Counted from the stretch's first letter, positions 4,601 to 45,034 are shown. The stretch is DNA of 64,000 nucleotides from Candidatus Woesearchaeota archaeon (GCA_016180085.1 JACPBX010000003.1:32001-96000); one strand, 5' to 3'. Numbers and translations: made by a program. The notes: generated by a model from the letters alone, not told the origin.

Positions 4601-7373
4601 CGAAAACACTGTTGCCTCGCTCTACGAAATCAAAGGTAGTTTAGATGATTTAGATGAAGATGATATCGCAAGCAGGGAACGGAAGCTTGTTGGCAGGAAG
4701 GAGCTTGGCTCTGTCAGACCAGAATCCTTTTTTGAGTTTGACTTTGACTGGACGCCATCTTCAGCAGGAGAATTTTCACTAGAGCTGGTGCTCGAGGCAT
4801 CTAACGAAGGCAATAATGAAGACAATACCGACATCGTGGAAGCTTTTGTGCAGAGGAAAGAGGTTGACGCCGAGGTTAGCAGCCTTGAGTTTCCCGACTT
4901 CATCATTTCCGAAGCCCAGAACCCGATATACGCCATTGTTACCAAAATCGGAAAGGAGGAGCCTGGGCCGTTTAACATCACGCTGAAGGCAAACGGCCTC
5001 GTCGTTTCAACAGTGTATGACTTCACCTTCAGCCAGTTTACAACGACACAGTATGTCCAACTTTGGTGGACTCCGGCTGCAGCCGGTAAATACGTTGTTG
5101 AGGCAGAGCTCAACCTCAGTGATTCTGACACTTCAAACAATGCAAAATCAAAGAAGGCGGATGTGACCGGCAAGAGGCAGGTGAACATTACCTTCCTTGC
5201 CCCAGATGGCACGCCTGCCGAGAGGCTGCTGGCAGTTGGAGATTTTGATGGCACTGTGACTGGGACAGTAGGCGTCACTTTGCCTGATGCTCCGGTTGAC
5301 GTCTGGATTGGCATGAAGGAAGAAGAAGGGAATTCTGTCGCTTCTGTCTATGAGAAGTCGTCCATTAGGGGGAATGTTACTGTAGTTACAGCCCGCTCAG
5401 CTACGCCTTCTGTCCAGAACGGCGTGCTTGTCTACGAGTTTTTCGCCAACAATATCTCGTGGAGCTACCAGTCTGTTTCAGAGTTCCTAAGCAGGAGGCT
5501 TTCAGACCTGACCATCCGCTACACCGAGCTCAAGGCGTTTGTGTGCGATGGCTTTGACTTTGCAGGCTCAAAATGCGGGAACTGGCAGGAAGTGCCTTCT
5601 GACATAATTGTTGACTCCGGCGTTTTGCTTGTGACAGCCTCAGCGAGCAGGGCAAACTCATTTGCGATTGGCGACAAGGACTACGACGATGACAACCAGC
5701 CAGACTGGGATGACAGCGATGCCGATAATGACGGCGTTGACGATGAAACAGACAGCTTTGTCTGCTTCAACGGCAGGCTCAAGTCGACAAAGCTGAATGT
5801 GAGCGTTGACGGAAGTTCGGATGCAAAGGATGTTGAAGGCAAGAAAACGGTGGATTTCAAGCAGGGTGAAAGGCAGATAGCAGAGTTCACGGCTGATTTC
5901 GACAAGGGCGTCCTTGACTGCAGGGATGTTACGGTTGAAAAGCAGCCTGAGTCAGCCAAATCAGGCTACGTTCTTATTTCAGGAATAGCTAATTCAGCTG
6001 AGCCCAAGAAGGTTTTTGTTGACAAGATCGCGAAGATAAGCAGGGTCTGCGTAAAAGATGCTGAGATAATCTCCATAGCTGAAGTAAGCCAGGGCTGCAC
6101 GGGAAGCAGCGAGTTCATTGTGCTATGCAACGGAGTGAAGCAGGGCAGCTATACCTGCACAGAAACAGAAAGCCAGTATGTAATCACAGGCGTTGTGCAC
6201 TCTGGAATAATAGAGCTTACAGATTGCCAGGAGTCGTGGTTATGCACTGACTGGAGCGCATGCGTTTCAGGGAAGCAAACACGCAGCTGCACTGACTCGC
6301 ACAACTGCGGCACACAGTCAAGCAAGCCTCTGGGCGAGCAGCCCTGTCAAACTAGTGGCGGAGGCGGTGGAGGTGGTGGAGGAGGAGGCGGTGCTTCGCG
6401 AAGGACGTTTGGGCTTGATGATCTGGAAAACTGGGTTGCAGGCAAGACAGAGCAGCTGCTGGTAAGGGAAAAGGACGTCATTACCTTTGACTTCGGCAGG
6501 CGCAATTACAGGCTGGTTGTGAGGGATATAGCGAGTGCCTTTGTAAGGATTGACATTTCATCAGAAACAAAGGACAGCACAATAGGCAAAAGCGAAACCA
6601 TGCTGTTTGACCTTAACAAGGATGGCACTGATGACCTTGCCCTGACATTCATAAGCCTTGATTTCAACAAGGCTGTTATCACGCTGCAAAGGCTTGAGCC
6701 AAAGCCAGTGGAAGCAGCCAAGCCAAAACCTGCGCAGCCTTCCACGCAGCCTACGCAGCAGTCAGAATCAGAACAGCCACCTCAACAGCAGGTAGTGCAG
6801 CCAGAAAAAGAGCCTGCACAACCACGCATTGGCCTCAGAAATGTGGGCAGGACTGCGTTCTTTGCCTTGATAGCTGGAGTGCTGGCCGTAATTCTACTGG
6901 CAGCAATCGCTTTCGTCTCAAACATGCTGGGCAGGCCGAGGCAGCCTAAACAACCTCGGCAGCCTTACCAGCTTCAGCAGCCGCACCACCCACCGTACCA
7001 ACCTCATCACCCCGCTTACTATCAGGCTCATCACGCAGCCGCAACCCACCCAACGGCTCACATTCCAACACACATCCCAGCCCATCCTGCGCAGCAGCCT
7101 GCACACCCACCAGTTCATCCTGCCCATGCTGCCGTCCATGCCGTCCAGCCCAGGGCACAGGCTGCACCAAGCCCGACAATTGCAGATGTTGAGGCGTTCA
7201 TTAACCGCTGTCTGGCGAGAAGGCTGTCTTCTGAGCAGATTGTAAGGCTCTTCGCCAATGCCGGCTGGAGCCCCAGGCTTATTGAGCACGTTATCAAGGT
7301 TAAGATTGCAGAACTCACCAGGGAAAGGCATAGGATTGAGCATTCGCTGCACATGCACGAAACCAGGAAGTAA
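1695..7373 (+). CDS. Giant (1892 aa) cell-surface protein with multiple CARDB/Ig-like domains, Ca-binding Asp-rich motif, Cys-rich module and C-terminal TM helix
   Basis: N-terminal hydrophobic segment ending LVSGC; recurring CARDB-like motifs (ARVVNVGG, AEVENIG, DSDTSNN, DENSLNN); DKDYDDDNQPDWDDSDADNDGVDD; CQESWLCTDWSAC; Gly linkers; TM FFALIAGVLAVILLAAIAFV; ATGA overlap with the protease stop. Confidence 0.85.
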   Translation: MKMRAVHCLPNKKFCTSRILAAVLLAAVAVLVSGCYTDDYLLSSEHYFSGWVLHNVDASTKTDLSYSKADVAELNYSFGFPSSVPAESSSVDWWIMPLHKNQLFAFVIGLNKVFPVPLNTTYYIFGQNGPEDFYETKWSFSTQLSHSYALSGAGEIVPIAPEATQFFPSDDAFFDAYNPVAGESKPVLLGSPPFLPTSVSVTDTGSSAHINLSSPLISLASGNGFVSYYADEFAAPTYKVLKSDGKIFWEGELTDASTGKISHKALDVSVSKPDTYSIVLKIPLPYEAWNLTEVTASFTYPSSDISPPVLEKVDVLPRFTPGKDLPVSVRFSDNVQIASVEVYARISPESEWQKLSVTEESGLANAFFSVAEGASRVDLKLAAKDLSGNGASYIINYASLPAVETKLALDVPSELTRLQKVRLSGTCSHTNGQNCNEELILIRVDGSEAARTIAREGKFELDFTMPESSSPESKLSAAFLGTGTLSQASTDVSVAVPSHGRDVGVADLSVRDALLGEPFKVSARVVNVGGQEEKDVAVELTANGDLISSKTLEALAVAESRDVSFDFFPEEGFYDIAISATAKADENSLNNEVSEGVDVEYAAPDVSVYAEPAKTAVFSKTAVTLQVTNYGEVKATGIKAQLYDLYKPVSTFIDLSEEKPGKGSGGGGGGKEGKKKVSASYNDTDYDIEAERVGQSIVLTVSVKGKPETAEELTFTNSLKVQKLASGVYFYMDFASHFGAFFRIGTATVSEVSVGNLNSFEERAVPVDWAPGSIGEYILVAFVSADSDSYTGNNYYSVDGRSLKEGVNVESSLSIDFSKKFVTGVKTAIPAEVENIGSESAKKIVVSLYEEKDEDGSEEEKTKESKPVPGAIKATLIGTQAIDELDVKKSRKLIFDWVPKKSGVRRLTLIAEVKGDVDASDNDAVGFARVVPKDKADLDASLFHPDDELLAGQAVNVTGSAYNAGIKAAENTVASLYEIKGSLDDLDEDDIASRERKLVGRKELGSVRPESFFEFDFDWTPSSAGEFSLELVLEASNEGNNEDNTDIVEAFVQRKEVDAEVSSLEFPDFIISEAQNPIYAIVTKIGKEEPGPFNITLKANGLVVSTVYDFTFSQFTTTQYVQLWWTPAAAGKYVVEAELNLSDSDTSNNAKSKKADVTGKRQVNITFLAPDGTPAERLLAVGDFDGTVTGTVGVTLPDAPVDVWIGMKEEEGNSVASVYEKSSIRGNVTVVTARSATPSVQNGVLVYEFFANNISWSYQSVSEFLSRRLSDLTIRYTELKAFVCDGFDFAGSKCGNWQEVPSDIIVDSGVLLVTASASRANSFAIGDKDYDDDNQPDWDDSDADNDGVDDETDSFVCFNGRLKSTKLNVSVDGSSDAKDVEGKKTVDFKQGERQIAEFTADFDKGVLDCRDVTVEKQPESAKSGYVLISGIANSAEPKKVFVDKIAKISRVCVKDAEIISIAEVSQGCTGSSEFIVLCNGVKQGSYTCTETESQYVITGVVHSGIIELTDCQESWLCTDWSACVSGKQTRSCTDSHNCGTQSSKPLGEQPCQTSGGGGGGGGGGGGASRRTFGLDDLENWVAGKTEQLLVREKDVITFDFGRRNYRLVVRDIASAFVRIDISSETKDSTIGKSETMLFDLNKDGTDDLALTFISLDFNKAVITLQRLEPKPVEAAKPKPAQPSTQPTQQSESEQPPQQQVVQPEKEPAQPRIGLRNVGRTAFFALIAGVLAVILLAAIAFVSNMLGRPRQPKQPRQPYQLQQPHHPPYQPHHPAYYQAHHAAATHPTAHIPTHIPAHPAQQPAHPPVHPAHAAVHAVQPRAQAAPSPTIADVEAFINRCLARRLSSEQIVRLFANAGWSPRLIEHVIKVKIAELTRERHRIEHSLHMHETRK

Positions 7374-18890: not shown

Positions 18891-19008
18891 TGTGAACAGC
18901 GATCCTGTTTTCCCGCACGACGTGCAGTACTGGTAGGAACGTGCGCCTGCTTAACTGTCCGAGTTCGAAATGGGATCGGGTGTACCCAGGCGGCCATGGC
19001 CGTTCACA
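18891..19008 (-). rRNA. rrf: 5S ribosomal RNA
   Basis: Minus strand GTGAACGGCCATGGC...ACACCCGATCCCATTTCGAACTCGGACAGTTAAGC...AGTACTG...GGGAAAACAGGATCGCTGTTCAC; terminal helix pairs; conserved CCCGATCCCATTTCGAAC core. Confidence 0.95.
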
Positions 19009-24396: not shown

Positions 24397-24667
24397 TGGA
24401 AAAAGAAGAATGCGGGTTCACAGAACCCGGTTAACTCAGCTCCACTCTCACTATGTGATGCAATAAGCTAACTTCTATTTAATCCTTTCGGTATGTTCTG
24501 CTTCACTGCGAATATTTCTTTCGGCAAAACCGAAAAACTTGCAAAATTTACCTAAATTTTTGAAAGACTTCCGAGAATTTTGAAAACAATTCGTAATAGT
24601 CCAGAAATTTTATGGAATTTAAGGGAATAAGCTTATGAATTTCTTAATCCTAGTCTGTTGCGGGACT

Positions 24668-26809
<2,142 letters not shown>

Positions 26810-32215: not shown

Positions 32216-34270
32216 TCAGCTTTTCGTAGCATTGATGTGTCTGCTTACTTCGTCAGTTATCTGTGCAAATGTCTTATTCGTAATTTCCAGCACGTAAACC
32301 GCAGTTGTCAGGTTTGGTGCGTTTACGTAGTTTTCGCCAGCCGTTACGTAGTTAAGTAGCCATCTTTGGCTTCCTAAGCTGGCTACCCAGTCGAACCTGC
32401 CTGTGGTTTGGTTGTTGCTGAGGTTTCGTACATAAACTTGTTGTTCTTTGTATTTTGTTGCTGTTGGTATTGAGCTGTTGATGCCAAGCTCTATTGCTGT
32501 GTCGCCTTCTGCTTCGTTAGCGTTTCCTCCGCCACCGGCAGCAAGCGTCCAGCTCAGTGTTGTAGAGTTCAGCACGAAATAAGTGTCTGGTCTGTTGACT
32601 CCTGTGAAGCTGCAATTGTATCCTATTCCCGTTATTGAAGTTGCCAGCGTGTTTTTGACGGGGTTTGTTCTGTTGCCTATCGTGACGTTCTGAGTGTTTT
32701 GGTGGTTGGCGTCGAACACTTGGCACGTCGGCACAGAAACGGAACTGTATCTTTGGTGGAAGTCCAAGCTGAGATTAACAAAGCCGACGCTTGCTGTACT
32801 GTTCAAAACCTTACTCTCAAGAGTAACGTTATTGTATTTCATCGGGCTTGTTGTGTTGCTTACTGAAAAGTTTGTGACGTTCCATCTCGTAGCAGCACCG
32901 CCTCGCTGGAACATGAAAATTGGCTTTCCGCTATCAAGATTAGACAGGTCATGAGCCACCCAGCCAGTATCTTCATTTCCGGCAGCAGTTCCATCTCCCA
33001 TTGTGCACTTCGCGTGTGTCTTGTTAAAGGTGAAAGTGAGGTTATACCACGTGCCAGTTGACCCGCTCCAAGTTGGATTTGCCTTTGCTGTGCCTGCGCC
33101 GTTGTCGTATTGGAGAAAGTAGAGGACGCCGTCGCCAGCGGCTCCTAAACACAACAAGCTGTCTCCGCTTGAACTGCTGTAAGGGTTGTTGTCTGTTGCT
33201 CCTATCGCGTCCCAGTTTATTCTTATTCCTACCCCCATCGTTACAGCCCCTTCCAGCTGCATCATGTGCGTGCTAATCATGGTTCCAACTTCGTTCTGCT
33301 GCACAGAAATGTTGTCAGCCCTGAAAGTTGAGCAGGAGAAAGTGTTTGTACCGTCGCAGGTTGCAGAGTAAGAGAAAGCGTACCCTTTATCGCCTGCTGG
33401 GGCGAATTTTATGGTAACTCCTGTTGTTCCGCTTGTTGTGGTATTCACCCACTGCGGGTTGGTAGCGTATTCCTGGTCGTCCCAGGTGTCCCAAATGGAA
33501 GCGTTCAGAGGAACAAACACTCCATTGACTACTCCGCCGGTAGTTCTTGACTGGTTTATGTCGTTTGCGTTGTTGAAGTCGTCCACTGCTGTTGTCGCGT
33601 CGATTATGGGGTCAATTTCTATCCTTGTGGTTTGTGTTGGGCTTAGCGTTGATGGATGCAGTATCGTATCGTATTTAATCATGCCGCCGTAGGTTTTGGC
33701 TTTCGGTTTAAACCTTACCTGCTCTCCTACGAAGAATTGTGCTGTGTAGTAGTAATCGCTGCCATTAACGCTTTTTGCTGCCGGGACGTTTACCCATTCC
33801 CTTACAGTTATGGCTGTTGTGCTGGTATTTACTGTTGTCTGATTGTAAAATGATGAGTTCTCAGGGTTGAAGAGCTGTTCTACAGAGATGTTGTATATTG
33901 TAACGGTTTTTTGCACAGCCCTCAGTACTTCCACTGCATTGATGTAGCCTTGGTCGTTCTTGAATCTTAGCGTGATGTTCAGTCCTTGGTCAAAAGCGGT
34001 GTAGTTTGCGTACTGATAAAGTACTGTTTCTCCTACTTTGGCTATTTCTGGTGTTATGTTAAGGCGTCCTACTCCGCCTACTTCGTGCCATATGCTGGTT
34101 CCGCTTTTGGTTCCTCCTATCTGGAGTTCTGCAGAGCTCACGCTACCGGCTTGGAGCAACAGTAGTGAAAGGGTCATTACAGCAATAATTAACAGAACTT
34201 TTAGTCCTAACAATTGCCTTACCGTATTTTCTGCCATTTCCCAAATCTTCTTCATTCCAAACCACCTCAT
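32216..34270 (-). CDS. Secreted Asn/Thr-rich surface protein
   Basis: Signal-like LKVLLIIAVMTLSLLLLQAGSVSSA; beta-rich sequence; many N-x-S/T sequons. Confidence 0.8.
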   Translation of the reverse strand: MRWFGMKKIWEMAENTVRQLLGLKVLLIIAVMTLSLLLLQAGSVSSAELQIGGTKSGTSIWHEVGGVGRLNITPEIAKVGETVLYQYANYTAFDQGLNITLRFKNDQGYINAVEVLRAVQKTVTIYNISVEQLFNPENSSFYNQTTVNTSTTAITVREWVNVPAAKSVNGSDYYYTAQFFVGEQVRFKPKAKTYGGMIKYDTILHPSTLSPTQTTRIEIDPIIDATTAVDDFNNANDINQSRTTGGVVNGVFVPLNASIWDTWDDQEYATNPQWVNTTTSGTTGVTIKFAPAGDKGYAFSYSATCDGTNTFSCSTFRADNISVQQNEVGTMISTHMMQLEGAVTMGVGIRINWDAIGATDNNPYSSSSGDSLLCLGAAGDGVLYFLQYDNGAGTAKANPTWSGSTGTWYNLTFTFNKTHAKCTMGDGTAAGNEDTGWVAHDLSNLDSGKPIFMFQRGGAATRWNVTNFSVSNTTSPMKYNNVTLESKVLNSTASVGFVNLSLDFHQRYSSVSVPTCQVFDANHQNTQNVTIGNRTNPVKNTLATSITGIGYNCSFTGVNRPDTYFVLNSTTLSWTLAAGGGGNANEAEGDTAIELGINSSIPTATKYKEQQVYVRNLSNNQTTGRFDWVASLGSQRWLLNYVTAGENYVNAPNLTTAVYVLEITNKTFAQITDEVSRHINATKS

Positions 34271-34294
34271 AAACGTTGAGTTTTTATATAATTT

Positions 34295-36616
34295 TTACGT
34301 GATTGTAACGTTCAAAGCCTCCAAGTCATTCCATAAGCTGTTGACAGCAGTGAAATTGGCAGCGAAAGTGCCAGTTGCTGTGTAGTTATAAGTCACAAAA
34401 ACTATGGCATTCTCCTGCGGTTGCAACGTGATTGGGCTGCTGCTGCTGACTATTCCGTTGCCGGTGTTCAGGCTCCAGCTCACATTTGTCATATCAACAG
34501 TCATGTAGTTCTTAACGTAAGCCTCAAAAGTCCTCAAAGAGCCGCTGCTGTTAAGAACGGAAAAGTTGCCCACGCCAAGATATTCGACCTCAACAGGAAT
34601 GCTGGAGGAGGCTGTAAGACCGCCGCCCTGTGCCGTAGCCGTAACCGAGTAGTCGCCTTGAGCTGAGTAGTTGTGCTGAACATACACTAACAAAGATTTG
34701 CTGGAGTTAAGGTTAGTATTTTGAACGTTGCTTACAACATTCCCATCACCAAAGTCAAGAGTCCAATTAACGCTGACGTTAGTGACATCATTGTTAGTAA
34801 TGGAAAACTCAAACACCTTTTCTGATAAGTTGGAATAAAGAATTTTTAAGCCGCTTACGGAAAGGGCGCCGGCTGAGCTGACAGACAACGTCTTAGTGGC
34901 TGTCACGCCTTCCGCAATTGCGGTAGCGTTAGCTGTAACGGTGTAGTCGCCTTCGGAACTGTAATTGTATTCGAAATGTACGCGTATTGTTTCATTTATG
35001 ACCAGACTTGCGTTCCGGGTGCTGTTTATAACGGTGCCATCCCCAAGATTGAGCCACCAAGTGACATTATTAACCACGGATGAACCATTATTCTCAATAA
35101 CAAATTCAAATACTTTGTGGGTTGCCAAGGAGTAAAGCTGAGATAAGCTGGCAATTTTGAGCGAAACTACAGGAGGCAGTGGTGGGGGTGTGTTGTCGAC
35201 AAAATTGTTCGACTCATTGCTCTCATCAACCAAATTATCTAAATCAACAATCGCTACAAATAAGGAATCATTTGTAGTGTTTGAAGCTGAAAAATTAAAG
35301 ACAGCTGATGCATTCGCTGCCAAATAAGCAAGTGCAGATGAATTTTCATAAGTCCTGTTGTCAAACACGTCCAGAACAATGTTAAAAGCTGGTGCCTCCC
35401 CCAGGTTTGTGATGTTGATTGTGATGTTTGTAAGGTTATCCCCTAAAAATGAAGCATTCAGTGAAACAGCCAAATCCGGCAATGGCGGTCTTTCAAAATC
35501 TGTGTAATAAGTAAAGTTTACCTCATGCGCGTCATACAAGATATCCTTGGTAACATTTTCAACAGACAACTTTGTGAAAGAAAGCTTGAACGCGCCATTG
35601 AAGTACGTTGAGTAGATAACTTTGCCTAGAACTTCGGTTGTCACTGTTTGCGTGCCTGTACTCAATGTGGAATTTTTTGCCACTGTAGTTACGTATTCGC
35701 CTGAGGAATCATAAAGGGCAGTCTCTAAACTGTAATTGCCTGCTTCTGTGATGTTCAATGTAAAGTTAAACTGCAGCGCCTCTGAAAGATTGTTTGAGTT
35801 ATTGTCAAAAGCTCCGCTTGCGATGCTCTTTATGTAAGAACTCTTGGCAAAATCGGCATAGTTATACGATGATGTATTGTAATTAACAGTGAGTAACTTC
35901 TCACCAATCTTTACTTCTCCTATGCTATAATTGCCAACGTAGTGAGTTGATTTAATCGTTTCATTGTCAAAATCAACATCAACTGTTTGCGATGGCGTTG
36001 TTAAAGTAACTTCCTTTGTGGAAGAAATACTCTTATTATTGTACTTCAAATAAACCGTAATGCTGGTGGTTTTATTTTCTGTGACGCTTAAGTTCAATGT
36101 AACTCTGAGAAGGCTATTGCTTACAGGAGCATCCGATATTGAAGTTACGTTGACTCCTTTCTCGTAACTCAGATAATTGTTTGTCTGGACCTTGTACTTT
36201 GTGAAAACCAGTCCATAATCTTGCCCTCGCACTTCAACTGAATAATTATATTGGTTAAGGTTCAATAGTCTGGTGTCAAAAAGCACTAGTGCACTCTGGC
36301 TGGTTGAATTAACAGTGGCATTTGTATAATTTTTCAGTAAACCTGTTTTCTCATTCAGACCCACTATGAATAGGTACGTCGAACTGTTCAAGGCATTAGT
36401 AGTCAAGTTGATTATTAGCGTATCGTTCAACCCATTACCGTTCTGGTCAGTCATATAATCGCTAAAAGTGGTTACGTTAATAACGCCCGTATCGAAATCA
36501 TAATCATAAGAATCAATAAGTTTGTCAACAGTCATATTTGCAGCTAACACGGCAGATGAGCCTGCAATTAATAAAATGAAATACACTAACAACTGCCCGA
36601 CCAGTTTGCTATTCAT
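34295..36616 (-). CDS. Secreted CARDB/PKD-repeat surface protein
   Basis: Start MNSKLVGQ after a G-rich RBS; signal peptide; CARDB PDLAV...ITNLG...VDLDNLVDESNESNN; PKD-like WWLNLGDG, WTLDFGDG, HNYSAQGDYSVTATA. Confidence 0.88.
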   Translation of the reverse strand: MNSKLVGQLLVYFILLIAGSSAVLAANMTVDKLIDSYDYDFDTGVINVTTFSDYMTDQNGNGLNDTLIINLTTNALNSSTYLFIVGLNEKTGLLKNYTNATVNSTSQSALVLFDTRLLNLNQYNYSVEVRGQDYGLVFTKYKVQTNNYLSYEKGVNVTSISDAPVSNSLLRVTLNLSVTENKTTSITVYLKYNNKSISSTKEVTLTTPSQTVDVDFDNETIKSTHYVGNYSIGEVKIGEKLLTVNYNTSSYNYADFAKSSYIKSIASGAFDNNSNNLSEALQFNFTLNITEAGNYSLETALYDSSGEYVTTVAKNSTLSTGTQTVTTEVLGKVIYSTYFNGAFKLSFTKLSVENVTKDILYDAHEVNFTYYTDFERPPLPDLAVSLNASFLGDNLTNITINITNLGEAPAFNIVLDVFDNRTYENSSALAYLAANASAVFNFSASNTTNDSLFVAIVDLDNLVDESNESNNFVDNTPPPLPPVVSLKIASLSQLYSLATHKVFEFVIENNGSSVVNNVTWWLNLGDGTVINSTRNASLVINETIRVHFEYNYSSEGDYTVTANATAIAEGVTATKTLSVSSAGALSVSGLKILYSNLSEKVFEFSITNNDVTNVSVNWTLDFGDGNVVSNVQNTNLNSSKSLLVYVQHNYSAQGDYSVTATAQGGGLTASSSIPVEVEYLGVGNFSVLNSSGSLRTFEAYVKNYMTVDMTNVSWSLNTGNGIVSSSSPITLQPQENAIVFVTYNYTATGTFAANFTAVNSLWNDLEALNVTIT

Positions 36617-37019
36617 TCTCCCCCCAACTAGTATAATCACCATAAGACGTATTGCTCAGCGTCTTCACAGGCTTGACCGCAACCTCAAAATTGTTATCAA
36701 ACAAAATCTTCCTGACAGCGTTGGCTAAAGAAATATTGTTGTTCCTAAGGTGAATTTTAGTTTCATTTCGGCTCATTAAATCCATCATGGAAATACCAAG
36801 AGTGTCAAAATCGTCTATGTAAACCGTGCGGGAAGCGCTATTTGTCCCCTTATCCAAAAATATGCTTCTGGCGCTGATTAAGCGCTTCACAGCAGCGATA
36901 TCGCCCTGGATTTGGTTGCCATACGCCAAAATTTCCGGCTTGTTAGGGAGATTGATATTACCTTCATAGCTTAAGTTAGAAAAAAGTGATGCATTTTTAA
37001 CAAACGCTCTTTTTCGCAT
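36609..37019 (-). pseudogene. Truncated third cassette: anchor repeat only, hydrolase domain missing
   Basis: KPEILAYGNQIQGDIAAVKRLISAR...VKPVKTLSNTSYG matches the copies in 37575-39128 and 39685-43137, then stops after DYTSWGENE; no signal peptide. Confidence 0.75.
36639..36941 (-). repeat. 303-bp anchor repeat, copy C
   Basis: Encodes KPEIL...SYG; same length as copies A and B. Confidence 0.9.
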
Positions 37020-37020
37020 G

Positions 37021-37590
37021 TTACGCTCCTCCGCTTAATCCAATTATTAACATAATCAAACCAGATATGCCGAATGTGATGTAGGCCAATATGAGAAGAA
37101 TGACTAAATAAGTCAAATAAAAGACCACTGACTTTATCAGACCTATTAAGGGCTCAGATTTGATGTTTTTGTACGTATAAAAAGTTAAAAAAATAGAAGA
37201 GACTATGTGGCTTAGTGCGAGGCCACTAATCAAAATAGTATCCCGCGCAGTTGCATTCTTTGAAAACAGAAATAATGGCAAGTTGATAAGTAACAATGTG
37301 ATTGCTGATGGAATATAAACAAAGAGCGTATTTTCTTTTGGAAAGCTGTGAAAAAGTTTCATTAAAAAATGCGAAAAGATTTTATTAATGAGGTAAACCT
37401 GCCCATAAAAGATGAGTGTGAGAAGTGATAAGTATACAACTATGGTTGTCTGGATTGAGGCCGCATATAGAAATGACCAGAAAACAAAAAATGCCAATGA
37501 TAACGCAAGTAAAAAATTAACAATTATTTGGAGTAATTTACTCTTTCCTAGTTTAGTTTTTGCCATCTTTTGCCTCATATTAAATTGCAA
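37021..37590 (-). CDS. AT-rich multi-pass membrane protein (immunity candidate 2)
   Basis: About 5 hydrophobic helices; start overlaps the stop of the orphan hydrolase. Confidence 0.75.
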   Translation of the reverse strand: MQFNMRQKMAKTKLGKSKLLQIIVNFLLALSLAFFVFWSFLYAASIQTTIVVYLSLLTLIFYGQVYLINKIFSHFLMKLFHSFPKENTLFVYIPSAITLLLINLPLFLFSKNATARDTILISGLALSHIVSSIFLTFYTYKNIKSEPLIGLIKSVVFYLTYLVILLILAYITFGISGLIMLIIGLSGGA

Positions 37591-39128
37591 TCATTTTTAC
37601 TGTTTGAAACGTAGTTTCCATTACTACTCAACTCTTTATTCTTTAAAAACCCTTTAATAATGGAAAGTACAGGTTCGTACTCCGGTAGAGTATTGACTAT
37701 TTTCTTTGGGCCAATATGCATTACATTGCTGAAACTCACATAGTATTTGTTGCTTGAATTTATGTTGCCGCATGCTTCAGAAATATCCGCATTTGCCACT
37801 ATTCCATCTGTGCCTTGGCCAAGTGGATGAGGTATAACTTTCAGTACCTTATCAAGTTTACCTTGAATGAACAGGGTATTATTCAAATTAACATTTTGCC
37901 CTACCTTTGGTTCATTTGGGTCATTTATCCAACTTTGAAACTCACTGTAAATTTCAATAGACATCTTGTCTGGTAAACTGCTGGCACCTTGACCAACGAG
38001 ATACCATAAAAGTTCTTTCGGCTTCGTGTAGGGGAAGTAGGAAGGGGGAGAAGCAGTCAATTTGTCAATGTTTTTGCCTAATTCCACCACTAAATTCGCC
38101 ATAGTAACATGCTGTTTGCCTTGGTCTTTCAAATCCTGGATAATACCGAAAGAATCTTCTGATTCTTTTAGTAACCATATTAGACTAGCTAACTTTGTGA
38201 AGTTTCCCGGGCACCCAATCCCCACAAAAGTATCAACAGGATAAGGTGATAGATTAGTATAAAGGTACTGCCCCGTATTATAATCAAAGTAGTAACCGCT
38301 GTTATTCTTGCCTGTCTGGTGTGCTTCCAGGCTTTCCAGAGCAGCTGAGCAACCCAAGCTGAAGCCTACATAGTCAAGCTTGTTTTTGCCGCTGTACTTC
38401 TGAATTCCCGCTATAGAAGCAGGCCAGTAAAAGTCCTTCAAATCAGCAAAGGTGTAGTTTGGGCAGTTGCTGCCGCAGCCATTAGTGGAGGTGTCGTCGG
38501 TGTAAGGTCCGCCAACCATCTCAATAAGCCAAGCGTCAAAACCCTCGCCGGTCAATTCCCTGGCGAAGTCTTGCCATGAGAACAAGTTGCTGTGAATGCC
38601 TCTTGACAATACCACTGGCTTGTCACTGATGCCTGTCGCATTTCTATAGTCTGAAGAAAAATCAGAATTAACGTTCTTCACTCTTAGAACTGTTGAGTTA
38701 CCATATGAAGTGTTGCTGAGAGTTTTCACAGGCTTGACGGCTACCTCAAAGTTATTGTCGTATAAGATTTTCCTCACAGCGTTAGCCAAAGAAATATTGT
38801 TATTCCTCATGTGCAGCTTAGTCTCATTCCTACTCATCAAGTCCATCACGGAAATACCTAACGAGTCGTAGTCATCAATAAAAACAGTATACGATTTGCT
38901 GTTAGTGCCCTTATCCAAAAAGATATTTCGAGCACTGATTAAACGCTTAACAGCTGCAATGTCCCCTTGAATTCCATTGCCGTAAGCCAAAATCTCAGGC
39001 TTCCTTGAGCAACTATCTGAAAAGGAAAAGTATAAACTAATAACGCTGCTTGTTTTCTTGCCTTTTCCAAATTTTCTGTGTAGTTTAGTCATTTTAAAAA
39101 CCATGAAGCAGTGTGCGAATAATTCCAA
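37575..39128 (-). CDS. Orphan alpha/beta-hydrolase cassette (variant of the 1150-aa protein C-terminus)
   Basis: Nucleophile elbow YVGFSLG, TDGIV, MHI; oxyanion region VVLSRGIHS; no signal peptide; homology begins abruptly at KPEIL. Confidence 0.85.
   Translation of the reverse strand: MELFAHCFMVFKMTKLHRKFGKGKKTSSVISLYFSFSDSCSRKPEILAYGNGIQGDIAAVKRLISARNIFLDKGTNSKSYTVFIDDYDSLGISVMDLMSRNETKLHMRNNNISLANAVRKILYDNNFEVAVKPVKTLSNTSYGNSTVLRVKNVNSDFSSDYRNATGISDKPVVLSRGIHSNLFSWQDFARELTGEGFDAWLIEMVGGPYTDDTSTNGCGSNCPNYTFADLKDFYWPASIAGIQKYSGKNKLDYVGFSLGCSAALESLEAHQTGKNNSGYYFDYNTGQYLYTNLSPYPVDTFVGIGCPGNFTKLASLIWLLKESEDSFGIIQDLKDQGKQHVTMANLVVELGKNIDKLTASPPSYFPYTKPKELLWYLVGQGASSLPDKMSIEIYSEFQSWINDPNEPKVGQNVNLNNTLFIQGKLDKVLKVIPHPLGQGTDGIVANADISEACGNINSSNKYYVSFSNVMHIGPKKIVNTLPEYEPVLSIIKGFLKNKELSSNGNYVSNSKNDCNLI
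38700..39002 (-). repeat. 303-bp anchor repeat, copy B
   Basis: Encodes KPEILAYGNGIQGDIAAVKRLISAR...TLSNTSYG. Confidence 0.9.
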
Positions 39129-39672
39129 AACTTAATACTATAGTAAACCCCGTTATCTTACTGATGAATATCAAAGAAAACCAGAAAACTGATTGTGGTA
39201 TTAATACGGATTTTAAAAATGAATTACGGATTTTGTGCTCCTTAAAGAAAAAGTATTGAGTTAAGGTTGTAACTGATATTATCAATGAAAGAAATAACAA
39301 TATTACTACTTCATTAAATAAGATTGGATCGATGGAATATCTTTGTTCAATAAATTTAATATAAATAGCCTTTGATTTGAAAAAAAGAGCTGTTACTAAA
39401 AATGCAAAGGACAAAGAGCTAAAGGATAAAACTTTAATAAAGATGTTTTTAAATTCTAAATTCTTTCTCATTAGTGAGTTTTTAATATAACCGAGCAAGG
39501 TCAAGAATATTAGGCCGGAATAAATAAAAGATAGGATAATGAGGACTTTTAAGCTAAAACCTCCCTCAAAATTAATGCCTGTGTCTGTGCTAAATAACAT
39601 TCTGAAACTAGTTAAATAAGAAGCAAAAAAACCAATTAATAATGCATTAATAGCAACCAAGGTCTTATTCAT
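39094..39672 (-). CDS. AT-rich multi-pass membrane protein (immunity candidate 1)
   Basis: About 5 hydrophobic helices; starts about 12 bp after the stop of the 1150-aa gene. Confidence 0.75.
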   Translation of the reverse strand: MNKTLVAINALLIGFFASYLTSFRMLFSTDTGINFEGGFSLKVLIILSFIYSGLIFLTLLGYIKNSLMRKNLEFKNIFIKVLSFSSLSFAFLVTALFFKSKAIYIKFIEQRYSIDPILFNEVVILLFLSLIISVTTLTQYFFFKEHKIRNSFLKSVLIPQSVFWFSLIFISKITGFTIVLSFGIIRTLLHGF

Positions 39673-39684
39673 GCTTAATCACCC

Positions 39685-42600
39685 TCAAATCATATTACAA
39701 TTATTTTTCCCGTTAGTCCCGAATAAACCATTTTCTGAAACTGTCTGACTCTTTAAAAACGATTTGATAAGGTTTTTAACCACCCGGTCATCAGGTAAAA
39801 CTGGCGGTATAAACGTGTGATATCTGTTATCGAAACTTGCGTACCACTTATTGCTTGAGTTTATGTTACTGCACGCTTCTGCTATGTCTGCGTTCGCTAC
39901 AATGCCATCAGTGTTTTGCCCTAATGGGTGTGGTGCTTTTAAATAAAAAGGATACTGCAGCGGGATCAAAATTGTGTCAAGTTTACCTTGGATAAGCAAA
40001 GTGTTATTCAAAACAACATTGTGTCCTAACTTTGGTTTGTTCGGGTCATTTATCCAACTAAGAAATTCCTCATAAACGTGTATTGACATTTTAGGGCCTA
40101 ATGAATCAGCGCCTTGCCCTGCCAAGTAAAGCAGCAGTTCTTTAGGTTTTGTGAAAGGGAAATACGAAGGGGGAGAAGCCGTTAATTTATCAACGTTTTT
40201 GCCTAACTCAACAACTAAATTTGCCATAGTAACGTGCTTTTTGCCTTGGTCCTTTAAATCTTGAATAATGCCAAAAGAGCTTTCAGACTCCTTTAAAAGC
40301 CAAGTCAAAGAGGCCAACTTGGTAAAGTTTCCCGGGCATCCTATCCCTACGAACGTGTCCACTGGATAAGGTGACAAATTTGTAAACTTGTACTGTCCTG
40401 TGTCGTAGTCAAAGTAGTATCCTGTATTGTTTTTGCCCGTCTGGTGCGCTTCCAAGCTCTCAAGAGCTGCTGAGCAGCCCAAGCTGAAGCCTACGTAGTC
40501 AATCTTGTTTTTGCCGCTGTATTTCTGAATTCCTGCTATTGATGCAGGCCAATAAAAGTCCCTTAAGTCATTAAATGTGTAATTAGGGCAGTTGCTGCCA
40601 CAGCCATCGGCACTGGTGTCATCAGTGTAAGGACCTCCAACCATCTCAATAAGCCACGCATCAAAACCCTCACCAGTAAGCTCACGAGCGAAGTCCTGCC
40701 ATGAAAAGAGATTACTATGAATACCCCTGCTTAAGACCACTGGCTTGTCACTGATGCCGGTTGCGTTCCGGTAGTTAGCAGAGAAATCGCTGTTAACATT
40801 TTTTACCCTCAGAATCGTTGAGTTGCCGTAAGATGTGCTGCTCAAAGTTTTCACTGGCTTTACGGCTACTTCAAAATTGTTGTCAAAAAGAATCTTCCTA
40901 ACGTCATTCGCGAGCGTGATATTATTATTCCTCATGTGCAGCTTAGTCTCATTCCTCGTCATTAAGTCCATTACTGATATTCCAAGAGTGTCATAATCAT
41001 CAACGTATACTGTGAAATATTTGCTATAAGCGCCTTTATTCAAAAAGATGTTCCTGGCATTAATAAGGCGCTTAACAGCGGCAACATCGCCCTGTATTTT
41101 ATTACCGTAGGCCAAAATCTCAGGTTTGCCGCTATAGCTATTGACAAAGTCAGGACCGCTCTTAACGACTCCTGCATAGTCTTTTTGCATGGACTTAGCA
41201 CTACCCAATATCGTACTGGTTATATTAAACGGCTCGGAATTTGACACTCTCGGATGGCCCACAATAATTACGACATCCGCGTCCGAACTGCTTGCCGGCT
41301 CAACAAAAGTGCTGATGTATTCCTTTATAAGCTCGTTCAGGATGGAGAAAGAGGGGTCCAGCCGGACATCAACGTATGCCTTGATTGGCTTTACAGCAGC
41401 CCTGAAAACGTAGTTGTTTGTCTCGTCATCCTCCTTAACTGCGTCGTTAGAGTCCACGTATATGTGCAGGAAATCAGTTGATGCTATACTGCTTAAAGTG
41501 AATGAGGCGTTTTTTTCAGAACCTGCAGTTAACGAAATAGTTGTTGATTTGCTTTCCTTTGTGACGCCTTCTTCGTCCAGTCTATAAACCGTAACTTGCA
41601 CATTAGACGTTACGCTGGAAGAATGAACTGTAACGTTCACCCCCTTACTTGTTATGTTAACACAAACATCACTCTGCGTAATGTAAAGATCATTTTTGGG
41701 GCTGCACTTGGTGCATTCGAAGTATAGAAAATCAACGTCTCCATTACTGTCTATTTGTGTTGTTTTGGCGTCACAAACAGTGCTGTTATCAGAACACTTT
41801 ACAGTAACGTTCTGGTCAGAGCTACATGTGACATTAAGGTTCAGTATCCTTTGGCCGAGGCTGTCAGTAGTGCCGTTATAGGTGGCATTCCAGTAAACGT
41901 TAAGGCCTGAAAGTGGAGCCCCGCTGCTGTCCTCGGTAAGCATTTCTATTGAGCCTGTGCAGTAGGTGGGTGGTCCTTTGCAGTAGCCGGAAGTACACAG
42001 GATGCCGCCATCATCATTCCAGCAGTCGCTGTCTTGGGAGCAAGGCTGGCCAACTGCTTTTTTGCATGGTAAAGCTGGAGTAGTGGGGTTCGTTGTGACA
42101 TTTTCATCATGGTCTGAGTCACAAACATAGCTTGGTCCTGCCTTTACAGCGCACGAAAGCATAGCATTGGTATAAAACACGCTATCCGTATATCCTCCAC
42201 CGCCGCAAGTCCTGTTGGTATACTTAAACTGCTGATAGTAATTGTTGCTGCCATCATTTACGCAAACGTGCTTCTCATCAGTCGCCCAGCCGCCGCAATT
42301 GCCAGAATAGCAATCTGCGTTTTGAGTGCAGATATGGTTTACCGTAGAGCCATCTTGGAGTGTGCACGGCACCGGGATACTTCCCGTTCTCGTAGTTACT
42401 TCCTGGTCGTCATGAGGTGTATGCGCGGTATTTGGGTCGCAAACAGTATTCTGTTTAAAATTCAGGCAGCTTAAGTCACTCTTAATGTTTTTCCAGTCAG
42501 TAGCACCTGAACCGTTTTTTCCCTCTAAATCGTAATTATCTGTGCCTGCCTTGTTGTTGTCAGCCTCCTCAGTAGCACTTGCATCACAATCATACTTTTG

Positions 42601-43137
42601 AGGATTAACAACCCAAAAGCTAACTTTAACCAACGAATCTGAATGCATATCACTTTCTGAATTGTCGCAATCGTAATAGACCGTTGCGTTCACGTCACTT
42701 TTCTGAATATTTGACGTATCAACTCCACTACAGCCGTCACATACTCTTTGCGGGACATCAACTCCTTCCTTGCAATTCGCTTCGATATCGCAACTGGCTT
42801 TATTGGCATCGTTCATGTTTTGGGGAATTGAGAAAGAATCACAATCATTTACCCCACAACTCGAACCACAGCCATTCGAATCGTAATAGCAGTTGTCGAA
42901 TGTTCCGTCATTGTTCCAGTCTAGGCAAACAAAGTCGGCAGAGGCACCAGCAATACCGTTCACTTCAAAGGCTATGTCATCATCAGTCCAAATAACACCA
43001 TCATCTAACCCTGCCCCATTCACAGCCCAATCATCATAATAGTCAATTATAGGTAAAGCCACTGCAAAAAGTGGCAATAGTAACATAAGCAAAGAAAAGT
43101 TCAAAATACTAAAGGCTGCCTTGTTCATTTCATTCAC
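39685..43137 (-). CDS. Secreted Cys-rich/CARDB protein with C-terminal alpha/beta-hydrolase (lipase-like) domain
   Basis: Signal FSILNFSLLMLLLPLFAVA; Cys-rich N-terminal half (CTQNADCYSGNC, CSQDSDC); CARDB signature IYVDSNDAVKEDDETNNY; YVGFSLG...TDGIV...YHT triad. Confidence 0.88.
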   Translation of the reverse strand: MNEMNKAAFSILNFSLLMLLLPLFAVALPIIDYYDDWAVNGAGLDDGVIWTDDDIAFEVNGIAGASADFVCLDWNNDGTFDNCYYDSNGCGSSCGVNDCDSFSIPQNMNDANKASCDIEANCKEGVDVPQRVCDGCSGVDTSNIQKSDVNATVYYDCDNSESDMHSDSLVKVSFWVVNPQKYDCDASATEEADNNKAGTDNYDLEGKNGSGATDWKNIKSDLSCLNFKQNTVCDPNTAHTPHDDQEVTTRTGSIPVPCTLQDGSTVNHICTQNADCYSGNCGGWATDEKHVCVNDGSNNYYQQFKYTNRTCGGGGYTDSVFYTNAMLSCAVKAGPSYVCDSDHDENVTTNPTTPALPCKKAVGQPCSQDSDCWNDDGGILCTSGYCKGPPTYCTGSIEMLTEDSSGAPLSGLNVYWNATYNGTTDSLGQRILNLNVTCSSDQNVTVKCSDNSTVCDAKTTQIDSNGDVDFLYFECTKCSPKNDLYITQSDVCVNITSKGVNVTVHSSSVTSNVQVTVYRLDEEGVTKESKSTTISLTAGSEKNASFTLSSIASTDFLHIYVDSNDAVKEDDETNNYVFRAAVKPIKAYVDVRLDPSFSILNELIKEYISTFVEPASSSDADVVIIVGHPRVSNSEPFNITSTILGSAKSMQKDYAGVVKSGPDFVNSYSGKPEILAYGNKIQGDVAAVKRLINARNIFLNKGAYSKYFTVYVDDYDTLGISVMDLMTRNETKLHMRNNNITLANDVRKILFDNNFEVAVKPVKTLSSTSYGNSTILRVKNVNSDFSANYRNATGISDKPVVLSRGIHSNLFSWQDFARELTGEGFDAWLIEMVGGPYTDDTSADGCGSNCPNYTFNDLRDFYWPASIAGIQKYSGKNKIDYVGFSLGCSAALESLEAHQTGKNNTGYYFDYDTGQYKFTNLSPYPVDTFVGIGCPGNFTKLASLTWLLKESESSFGIIQDLKDQGKKHVTMANLVVELGKNVDKLTASPPSYFPFTKPKELLLYLAGQGADSLGPKMSIHVYEEFLSWINDPNKPKLGHNVVLNNTLLIQGKLDTILIPLQYPFYLKAPHPLGQNTDGIVANADIAEACSNINSSNKWYASFDNRYHTFIPPVLPDDRVVKNLIKSFLKSQTVSENGLFGTNGKNNCNMI
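40825..41127 (-). repeat. 303-bp anchor repeat, copy A (within the full-length gene)
   Basis: Encodes KPEILAYGNKIQGDVAAVKRLINAR...TLSSTSYG. Confidence 0.9.
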
Positions 43138-43786
43138 TTGTGCGGTTAATGCTTTCTCTATGGACTTTCATCCTTTCCCACCGAGCAAACGTCCCTTTTT
43201 TGATGCACTCATTAGCTGAGCAGGAATCACATTCTTCAACCTGGCCGTAATCTGTGCCGTTACAATAAAGCCAATGCAGGTTTCCATCAACGCATTCGTA
43301 ATGGTCGGCAAGGCTGCATTCATGATCAGAGCCTACGTAGAATGTATCTATGTTGGAATTAATAACGCCATCTAAGTCTTTGAAATTTCCTCTATGCCTA
43401 GTAAGCCATCCAGAAACGTAACTCGTTCCACCAGAAGCAAGGTAAACATCCTCCCCATTTACCTTTAAATGGGTGCCTTGCTGAGTTACAGGTTCAATAA
43501 GCTCTACTGAAAGCTCATGTTTTTCAGGTCCCGTCAATTTTTCAAAAACCTGTGATGTTCTGTTCATTGACAGAAGAACACCGGTAACGTGTTTAACTCT
43601 CTCTTCATAAGCGATATGTGATAAGCTCTTTTCTCCCGTCGCTAACCTGTTCACGATTTCTTGGATTTCAGTAGCATTCGCAAAAACAAGATAGCTGAGA
43701 AAAGTCAAGCTAACTACAAGCGCAATCAAAAGAACAAATAATTGTTTTTTAACTTTAACCGCCCCATTTAAATATGGCTGCTTCAA
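43130..43786 (-). CDS. Secreted or membrane-anchored hypothetical protein with Cys-rich C-terminus
   Basis: TM LFVLLIALVVSLTFLSYLVFA; HECSLADHYECVDG...YC...EECDSCSANEC; stop overlaps the start of the 1150-aa gene. Confidence 0.7.
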   Translation of the reverse strand: MKQPYLNGAVKVKKQLFVLLIALVVSLTFLSYLVFANATEIQEIVNRLATGEKSLSHIAYEERVKHVTGVLLSMNRTSQVFEKLTGPEKHELSVELIEPVTQQGTHLKVNGEDVYLASGGTSYVSGWLTRHRGNFKDLDGVINSNIDTFYVGSDHECSLADHYECVDGNLHWLYCNGTDYGQVEECDSCSANECIKKGTFARWERMKVHRESINRTSE

Positions 43787-43924
43787 CAGCCAAATCCCAA
43801 CTTCAAGCTAACCGACAATGTTGACTATTTAAACCTTTGCGTGGCTTCCGGAAGTTTTCCGACGAGAAATGGAAGTTTTTCAAAGCATTTCCGTAGTTTT
43901 TTGGCTGCTGGTGATTCGTCTTAG

Positions 43925-45034
43925 CTACGGCTTAAAGCTGCGCACCGCAGCTGCAACAGCCTCAATCTCTTCGTTTGTGAGTTCAGGGAACATTGGGAGC
44001 GATAGCACCTCTGCGGCTGCTTTTTCCGCAACAGGGTATCTTTGGCTGTTGTATTCTGAGTAGGCCTTTTGCTTGTGTATGGGTATCGGATAGTGTATCA
44101 GCGTGTCTATTCCTTTTGCCTTCAAATGCTGCTGGAGCCTGTCCCTCTGTTTGCTCCTTATTACGTAAAGGTAATATGCGTGTTTTCCGTATTTGGCCTC
44201 CATTGGCATTATCACATCAGCCTTGGAAAGTGCGCTGTTGTATTCAGTTGCTATTTGCCTTTTTTTCTCCACCCACCTGTCAAGGTGCTTCAGCTTTACG
44301 AGCAGGATGGCTGCCTGCAGCTCGTCGAGCCTGCTGTTGAAGCCTTTGGTTATGTGCTCGTATTTCTTCTTCTCCCCGTAGTTCCTTAACAGGAAAGAGT
44401 TCTCGGCAATCTCGCCGTTGTTCGTGACTATAGCCCCGGCGTCTCCATATGCCCCAAGGTTTTTCGTCGGGTAGAAGCTGTAGCAGGCAACATCGCCAAG
44501 AACTTCCCTTTTGCCCTTGTATTCTGCGCCGTGGCTCTGGGCAGCGTCTTCCACAACTATTATGTTGCGTTTCTCGGCTATCTCCATTATGGGGCCCATA
44601 TCTGCGTATTGGCCATACATGTGCACCGGAATAACGGCTTTTGTTTTTGCAGTTATTGCTGCCTCTATTTTCTCAGGGTCTATGCAGTAAGTGTCTTCCC
44701 TGGCGTCCACAAATACCGGCTTTGCGCCGCAGTAGCTTGCTGCGAGGGCGGTTGCTATGAATGTGTGCGCAGGCACTATCACCTCATCACCTGGACCTAC
44801 GCCTGCTGCCCTGAGCGCTATGTGCAGTGCCTCTGTGCCTGAGCCCACGCTTATGCACTGTTTCGCTTTGGCATACTTTGCGAAGGCTTTTTCGAATTCC
44901 TCAACCTTCTCTCCTAGTATGAACCTGCCTTTTTCCAGCACTTCGCTTATTGCAGCGTCTATCTCGCGCTTTATGCTGTGGTATTGCCTTTTCAGGTCCA
45001 GAAACGGCACAAATACAGACTCATGTTTTCTCAT
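43925..45034 (-). CDS. DegT/DnrJ/EryC1/StrS sugar aminotransferase
   Basis: GSGTEALHIAL, PVHMYGQ, EDAAQSHGA, SFYPTKNLGAYGDAG, NSRLDELQAA. Confidence 0.96.
   Translation of the reverse strand: MRKHESVFVPFLDLKRQYHSIKREIDAAISEVLEKGRFILGEKVEEFEKAFAKYAKAKQCISVGSGTEALHIALRAAGVGPGDEVIVPAHTFIATALAASYCGAKPVFVDAREDTYCIDPEKIEAAITAKTKAVIPVHMYGQYADMGPIMEIAEKRNIIVVEDAAQSHGAEYKGKREVLGDVACYSFYPTKNLGAYGDAGAIVTNNGEIAENSFLLRNYGEKKKYEHITKGFNSRLDELQAAILLVKLKHLDRWVEKKRQIATEYNSALSKADVIMPMEAKYGKHAYYLYVIRSKQRDRLQQHLKAKGIDTLIHYPIPIHKQKAYSEYNSQRYPVAEKAAAEVLSLPMFPELTNEEIEAVAAAVRSFKP

Follow-up and report, generated by a model that had tools for sequence, protein, structure and literature searches.

The Rhs, CDI (CdiA-CT/CdiI) and MafB loci are polymorphic toxin loci that carry orphan toxin-immunity modules (Zhang et al. 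2012, PMC3482391). The toxin domains described for polymorphic toxin systems include lipase-like alpha/beta-hydrolases, for example Tox-ABhydrolase-1, and the classical systems are rare in archaea (PMC3482391). Archaeal systems have been predicted and were, as of 2021, without experimental characterisation (PMC8416519). VARTIG, a module of the Thermococcales, comprises a large exported protein, the C-terminal domain of which has become hypervariable by recombination, together with variable downstream genes (Makarova et al. 2021, PMC8416519). VARTIG has been likened by its authors to polymorphic toxin systems and has no known function (PMC8416519). In this paper, a hydrolase array is described in a 64,000-nt stretch of DNA from Candidatus Woesearchaeota archaeon (GCA_016180085.1 JACPBX010000003.1:32001-96000), hereafter called the window. 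On balance, we lean towards the view that this array is a polymorphic effector locus, specific to DPANN archaea and so far unannotated. The exchange of its C-terminal hydrolase tips, the pairing of each hydrolase with its own membrane protein and the alternatives to this reading are presented and discussed.

Eight closely packed genes, all in the same direction on the minus strand, span 32.2-43.8 kb of the window in the order p218, main gene, TM-A, copy 2, TM-B, copy 3, p782 and p684. An earlier, sequence-only reading had proposed the first six of these as open reading frames (ORFs) in this order, and all six are present where it had placed them. The main gene (copy 1, W1; minus strand, 39685-43137) is an ORF of 1150 aa that opens with a signal-like N-terminus, contains 39 Cys and matches CARDB and Abhydrolase_1 weakly. 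Its head (aa 1-385; 41983..43137), made up of the signal-like N-terminus and a Cys-rich region, is the lineage-specific part. The body (aa 386-663; 41149..41982) consists of two beta-sandwich domains, one of which is CARDB-like, followed by an alpha/beta domain. The AlphaFold2 (AF2) model of the body has a predicted local distance difference test (pLDDT) score of 84.8, and Foldseek returned only Ig-like beta-sandwich matches for it; the body is kept upstream of the hydrolase module in most loci. It is followed by the anchor (aa 664-785; 40783..41148), a pre-hydrolase segment common to all three copies, and by the N-half of the hydrolase (aa 786-945; 40303..40782), which contains the nucleophile Ser885 in GFSLG (codon 40483-40485). 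The variable tip (aa 946-1150; 39685..40302, stop codon included) comprises the cap and the Asp and His strands, with Asp1077 in TDGIV (codon 39907-39909) and His1107 in YHT (codon 39817-39819).

The proposal that the 1150-aa protein ends in a Ser/Asp/His alpha/beta-hydrolase holds: the three residues fall on near-invariant columns of a 24-sequence family alignment (S222, D414 and H444 in module numbering), and the nucleophile elbow G-x-S-x-G is followed by Asp and His in canonical order on the alpha/beta-hydrolase core. In the AF2 model (pLDDT 79.9, predicted template modelling score 0.82), the hydrolase adopts a capped alpha/beta-hydrolase fold, for which the best Foldseek matches are acid (lysosomal and gastric) lipases, esterases and polyhydroxyalkanoate (PHA) depolymerases, with a probability of 1.00. 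At the sequence level, Pfam Abhydrolase_1 scores 16.8-19.2 bits, under its cut-off of 25.8 bits, and a search by sequence among solved structures yielded no more than a marginal match to gastric lipase and a chance match to a maltose-binding protein. Judged from the model, the enzyme is predicted to be a capped Ser-Asp-His alpha/beta-hydrolase of the lipase/esterase type, which agrees with the lipase-type assignment made before, its modelled fold being nearest to acid lipases and esterases.

The module is not confined to the window. A full scan of 1.84 billion representative proteins yielded 281 representative clusters, 121 of them at E <= 1e-30, in which the module forms the C-terminus of proteins of 1000-1900 aa or makes up short proteins that start near the anchor. 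The Ser-Asp-His triad is kept in all complete copies, both long (40/40) and short (27/27). In species genomes, 55 module loci were found, most of them labelled Woesearchaeota, Nanoarchaeota or Pacearchaeota. The heads vary across the family and include S8 subtilase, FG-GAP propeller, NosD/beta-helix and VWA types, with the Cys-rich type in the window. The conserved unit is the stalk (two beta-sandwich domains and the alpha/beta domain), the anchor and the hydrolase. Two to four module matches are present in 17 of the 55 loci, and 5'-truncated downstream copies recur in these. Scans of metagenome contigs with the W1 tip gave no match. No description of the family was found in the literature searched on DPANN lipases and surface systems, a search that did not take in the 2019 survey of archaeal polymorphic toxins. 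The module family is widespread, so far unannotated and DPANN-specific. About ten small metagenome-assembled genomes with the family are labelled 'uncultured Methanosarcinales archaeon' (L017, L037, L045, L058, L059, L061-L063 and L068-L070), and one carrier with a Methanosarcinales label is a complete 774-kb chromosome (OZ246410.1); these labels look like misassigned DPANN genomes.

Evidence for the exchange of tips was obtained from a relative, L016 (JACPIH010000002.1), in which the order flippase, p684, p782, array, main gene, p218 and epimerase is syntenic with the window. The main genes of the two loci are 73-92% identical over aa 1-785, with 73-85% in the head, and from aa 786 onwards the identity of successive segments is 48, 58, 62, 32, 24, 37 and 33% (about 54% for the hydrolase N-half as a whole). 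The terminal truncated orphan of L016 is of the window's type and is 80-95% identical to it, and the first two L016 copies are 90% identical in the N-half and 13-36% identical in the C-half. Cassette content is therefore not the same in all relatives, since in the syntenic L016 the same body is joined to another type of hydrolase; the sequence-only reading had named identical content throughout as a sign of simple tandem duplication. In another protein, P0002, the S8 head is unrelated to that of W1 and the body is only 49-53% identical, yet the tip (aa 946-1050) is 83% identical to W1. More generally, segment S4, in the C-half, shows 13-47% identity in many pairs in which the body, anchor and N-half are 80-100% identical, and the converse mosaic, with a divergent upstream part and a similar C-half, is also seen among copies. 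The exchangeable unit therefore begins, in many cases, within the catalytic domain itself, so that the cap and the strands with Asp and His travel with it.

The phylogenies of the two parts are in conflict. The body tree places W1 next to L016 as its sister (support 99), whereas the tip tree places it next to L017 (also 99). With the tip data, the approximately unbiased (AU) test rejects the grouping of W1 with L016 (p = 2.5e-6); with the body data, the test also rejects the grouping seen in the tip tree (p = 4e-5, for a group named post hoc from the tree). The anchor is 75-95% identical among the six copies of the window and L016, and from this comparison it is a likely substrate for recombination. 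Taken as a whole, a cassette architecture with exchange over evolutionary time is highly probable, and the idea that cassettes swap has stood up, with the addition that the copies within this genome are old.

The downstream membrane genes form the second part of the cassette. TM-A (minus strand, 39094..39672; 192 aa; GC 27.8%) follows copy 1, and TM-B (minus strand, 37021..37590; 189 aa; GC 33%) follows copy 2; both ORFs have five predicted transmembrane (TM) segments and they have no similarity to each other. Neither TM-A nor TM-B has a relative in the 55 loci, the species genomes, its own genome or 5.8 billion proteins, and an ESM Atlas look-up of TM-A gave only sub-threshold matches. Among the module ORFs of the 55 species-genome loci that have readable downstream sequence, 50 of 65 are directly followed by a small ORF with at least three TM segments, against 8 of 200 other ORFs; a p-value for this pairing is overstated, since kin loci are not independent. 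The stop and start codons of module and partner often overlap. A membrane-protein gene of its own for each hydrolase is a family-wide rule, and the distinct proteins of about five TM segments that had been proposed for each hydrolase of the window are an instance of it.

The partners are highly diverse, with 29 of 53 being singletons; one cluster of 14 and one of 4 were found, both in single-copy subfamilies. Where the hydrolase N-halves are at least 80% identical, the median partner identity climbs with tip identity, from 37 to 57 to 77%. Within one array, the partners are unrelated, even when the hydrolases are 80-92% identical. By analogy, this pattern of variation suggests a resemblance to cognate immunity proteins. 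In the FG-GAP-headed single-copy loci (L041, L046-L048, L055-L057, L060 and L066), the partner is a conserved protein of 80-90 aa with three TM segments and a C-x-x-N-x-G-C motif, in contrast to the hypervariable partners of the array-forming subfamily.

Further copies are located downstream of the main gene on the minus strand. Copy 2 (37575..39128) is a 517-aa ORF that comprises a 5'-truncated anchor and a complete hydrolase with an intact triad; its homology begins at aa 36, it is without a signal peptide, and its likely start is the ATG at 39092, 2 nt past the stop of TM-A. Copy 3 (36609..37019) is an anchor-only ORF of 136 aa that is cut off 3' at the start of the next gene and retains only the first ~110 residues of the shared region; a GGAGG is found 8 nt ahead of its ATG, and its stop overlaps the ATG of p782. 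The homology of all three copies starts at one junction, at 41127, 39002 and 36941, respectively. Copies 1 and 2 had been described as nearly identical until the last ~150 aa, which is overstated, since their identity is 80% over 490 aa of protein and 76.6% over 1151 nt of DNA, with saturated synonymous divergence (dS) and no detectable DNA identity over the last ~290 nt. By segment, the proteins are 83% (aa 664-785), 92% (aa 786-945), 83% (aa 946-1050) and 58% (aa 1051-1150) identical, and in finer segments identity falls to 44% at aa 1101-1150. DNA identity between the copies within the genome is 71-79%. As dS is saturated and nonsynonymous divergence (dN) is low (0.06-0.13 in conserved parts), the copies read as old paralogues kept as open frames and not as a recent duplication. 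The dN/dS ratio is not informative on present selection for copy 2 or copy 3, because dS is saturated and most of the divergence is perhaps older than the truncation.

The array is unlikely to be a misassembly, an explanation that the sequence-only reading had left open, because Logan contigs bridge the joins of unique with repeated sequence and the same layout is found in the independently assembled L016. These contigs, from groundwater runs, span 36891-38475 and 38889-40269 with zero differences, and two of the runs are possibly the source sample. The runs that contain the stretch are DNA groundwater metagenomes only, with zero RNA runs among them. Logan contigs also show inter-copy joints at a period of ~2.1 kb, each seen once: from 38248 to 40385 in X4 (side 35), from 40963 back to 38839 in X5 (side 95) and from 36713 to 38835 in X3 (side 21). 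As the contigs are short and were matched at 90% likeness, so that the joints possibly come from related strains, they may be taken as hints only. Over 34000-44200, contigs of 90-95% identity occur next to exact ones in four groundwater runs, which indicates that closely related strains differing at the locus coexist.

The surroundings of the array are consistent with an accessory island in a glycan locus. The genome is ~1.0 Mb in size, in 45 contigs and 83% complete. The island is bounded by a Wzx-like flippase gene on one side and by DegT, acetyltransferase, epimerase and glycosyltransferase genes on the other. The GC content is 36-43% across 36-44 kb, compared with ~49% in the flanking DNA, and this dip suggests an accessory character of the island; the array was not found in nine searched genomes of the same genus (67-92% complete). 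The source organism can be taken to be a DPANN archaeon, since the relatives that carry the hydrolase family are mostly named Woesearchaeota, Nanoarchaeota or Pacearchaeota. Both parts of the earlier assignment, a probable DPANN origin and a place in a glycan locus, are thus borne out by the relatives' names and by the flippase, DegT, epimerase and glycosyltransferase neighbours. Between the window and L016, the island genes are 81-83% identical and the flanking glycan genes 41-73%. In L016 (4976-5113), the DegT aminotransferase gene adjoining p218 is apparently reduced to a matching piece of ~46 aa.

The following model is proposed for the locus. A multidomain protein, predicted to be exported by the Sec route, is built from a head that varies, a stalk of beta-sandwiches, the conserved anchor and, at its end, a capped Ser-Asp-His hydrolase of the lipase/esterase type. 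The exchangeable cassette would be the hydrolase, above all its C-half with the cap and the Asp and His strands, plus the small polytopic membrane protein encoded by the tightly coupled gene that follows. More cassettes, truncated at their 5' ends, lie downstream, and the array closes at a conserved glycoprotein gene. Recombination in the anchor and at the boundary between the N-half and the C-half of the hydrolase would move tips among bodies and lineages. The hydrolase would attack esters, either lipids or acylated surface polymers, of another cell, which could be a host or a competitor, and the membrane protein would shield the producer's own membrane and so act as immunity. By analogy with known effectors, it seems an even chance that the exported ester or lipid hydrolase acts on another cell and that the membrane protein protects the producer. 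A wider proposal, which we put forward tentatively, is that DPANN archaea have their own contact-acting polymorphic lipase effector system, in which Sec-exported adhesin or protease bodies carry half-domain tips that are swapped together with polytopic immunity proteins and help decide which hosts or rival symbionts are attacked or tolerated.

Several observations weigh against an effector-immunity function. All 67 complete copies share one fold and not many unrelated toxin folds, the breakpoints fall inside the catalytic domain, and the Pfam and NCBIfam searches found no Rhs/YD, FHA, VENN, PAAR, LXG, HINT, releasing peptidase or linked secretion system. The earlier description of polymorphic toxin-like cassettes is therefore retained in part: a conserved body with a variable tip, a cognate gene and orphan cassettes are there, whereas a range of folds and trafficking or secretion parts were not found. 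The immunity proteins known for lipase effectors are either soluble proteins or lipoproteins and none is polytopic, and tip and partner could co-vary simply through being physically linked. Recent conversion among the copies of this genome was looked for and none was seen, the paralogues being old. In addition, the truncated copies may be translated genes and not silent spares, because each has a start codon of its own, set close against the gene before it, and copy 3 also has a Shine-Dalgarno-like site. The enzyme or adhesin-like heads would fit a surface enzyme as well as a weapon. The main rival, which we regard as unlikely overall though well worth keeping in view, is a surface enzyme for host contact or nutrient scavenging, with a cognate membrane partner for docking or uptake. 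Here, the hydrolase would free lipids or strip acyl groups from the host surface, the partner would tether the enzyme or import the product, and cassette diversity would follow the diversity of host surfaces and not warfare. DPANN genomes are reduced, the one studied here being ~1 Mb, the heads are proteases or adhesin-like modules, and the locus is surrounded by surface-glycan genes, with sequon-rich exported proteins always linked to it. Moreover, the partner is conserved in single-copy-locus subfamilies (the cluster of 14), which fits this rival and counts against immunity. A transporter or anchor, however, would be expected to be conserved, yet the majority of partners are singletons, TM-A and TM-B are unique, and partners within an array are unrelated despite very similar hydrolases. 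The truncated copies without a signal have no obvious use as surface enzymes.

Two other explanations address the copies themselves. Silent cassettes could recombine into an expressed surface enzyme and thereby evade viruses or host recognition, with the membrane genes as passengers; pilE/pilS and vlsE are precedents for antigenic variation of this type. The 5'-truncated copies with a common conserved junction and the mosaic tips among relatives agree with such a mechanism, which nonetheless leaves the strict pairing of each copy with an intact membrane gene unexplained, and copies with only 71-79% DNA identity would be a poor substrate for frequent conversion. There are, besides, only two spare copies. 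We consider antigenic variation improbable. Plain tandem duplication followed by decay, without any cassette function, would make the truncated copies deletion scars bounded by the next needed gene. The terminal fragments have a scar-like look in that they are cut variously and always abut the p782-like start codon, and recent exchange within this genome is not seen. Against decay, copy 2 has remained open over 1.5 kb and still has its triad although dS is saturated, every complete short copy has kept the triad, the body and tip phylogenies conflict, and the layout is repeated in many lineages; this explanation is the least probable of those considered and is given very little weight. Returning to the polymorphic effector locus, the present work defines a DPANN family in which the unit of exchange, half of a hydrolase domain together with a membrane partner, is clear and the catalytic residues are conserved. 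Recombination breakpoints within the enzyme domain are unusual for cassette systems. To our knowledge, the ways in which DPANN episymbionts engage, exploit and compete for their hosts are largely unexplained. If the proposed function is true, this would rank among the first effector-immunity systems native to archaea that can be studied by experiment, and it would provide a handle on episymbiont host range.

The remaining genes of the island are exported proteins. p218 (minus strand, 43130..43786) is the first island gene, an ORF for an exported protein of 218 aa that is Cys-rich (6 Cys) and has a single hydrophobic segment, at its N-terminus; among the loci compared, a homologue in the equivalent position was found only in L016 (62% identity). 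The exported PKD/CARDB protein encoded by p782 (minus strand, 34295..36616) contains 53 sequons of the form N-x-S/T. In 22 related loci, its N-terminal half (aa 1-487) is found together with hydrolase arrays, downstream of them, and in same-genus genomes without the array, including L072 and L073, proteins match only the PKD C-half, with 77-81% identity. This distribution makes the N-half a possible third component of the system; an ESM Atlas look-up of the N-half gave only sub-threshold matches. Module fragments that are 3'-truncated adjoin a p782-like start in the window (36609-37019), L016 (11564-12298), L017 (7314-8504), L019 (9892-10062), L024 (6127-6447) and L031. These terminal fragments are intact ORFs, are cut at differing points and end a few bases from the p782-like start codon; deletion scars, small proteins made of the anchor alone and homology arms are all candidate explanations for them. 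p684 (minus strand, 32216..34270) encodes an exported sequon-rich protein, the last ~100 aa of which recur in several relatives in a gene ~3 kb upstream of the main gene. Elsewhere in the window, a 5S rRNA gene on the minus strand and a tRNA-Leu(CAG) gene were found at 18891-19007 and 24667-24758, respectively, and an ORF of 1892 aa at 1695-7373.

Compared with Rhs, CDI and MafB, the DPANN locus has the same general design: a large protein that is exported and joins a conserved body to a C-terminal enzyme that varies, a sharp drop in identity at the junction, a small cognate gene immediately 3' and then cassettes of a 5'-truncated C-terminus with a partner. Mosaic evolution and low GC are shared as well. 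Unlike these systems, it is archaeal, with predicted export of the Sec type only, and is without Rhs/YD, FHA, VENN or PAAR parts. Its tips are all of one alpha/beta-hydrolase fold with breakpoints within the catalytic domain, whereas its partner is a polytopic membrane protein, its truncated copies have their own start codons and its array ends at a conserved glycoprotein gene.

With regard to the enzyme, the Tle lipase effectors of the type VI secretion system (T6SS) pair with Tli immunity proteins, which are periplasmic soluble proteins or lipoproteins. The DPANN locus resembles Tox-ABhydrolase-1 and Tle in having a GxSxG alpha/beta-hydrolase as a putative C-terminal effector next to a cognate gene. 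It differs from Tle/Tli in that the partner has 3-6 TM segments and that phage-baseplate or T6SS parts are lacking, and the likeness seen is one of fold and gene arrangement; for the T6SS parts VgrG, PAAR and Hcp, the NCBIfam scan gave only a chance-level TssI match (E = 0.07). The capped fold and the Ser-Asp-His triad are shared with acid lipases, esterases and PHA depolymerases (PDB 6v7n, 1hlg, 1k8q, 4uhc and 8ynw), from which the DPANN module differs in having only 12-14% sequence identity to them, with TM-scores of 0.4-0.65, and in being fused to an anchor and a surface-protein body. Among archaeal systems, VARTIG comes closest in layout. Its tip is an Ig domain in an arCOG07710-type protein, whereas in the DPANN locus the variable part is a hydrolase half-domain and it is the Ig-like domains that are conserved; VARTIG also belongs to another lineage and has other downstream genes, and the rule that each hydrolase is paired with a membrane protein holds in the DPANN family and not in VARTIG.

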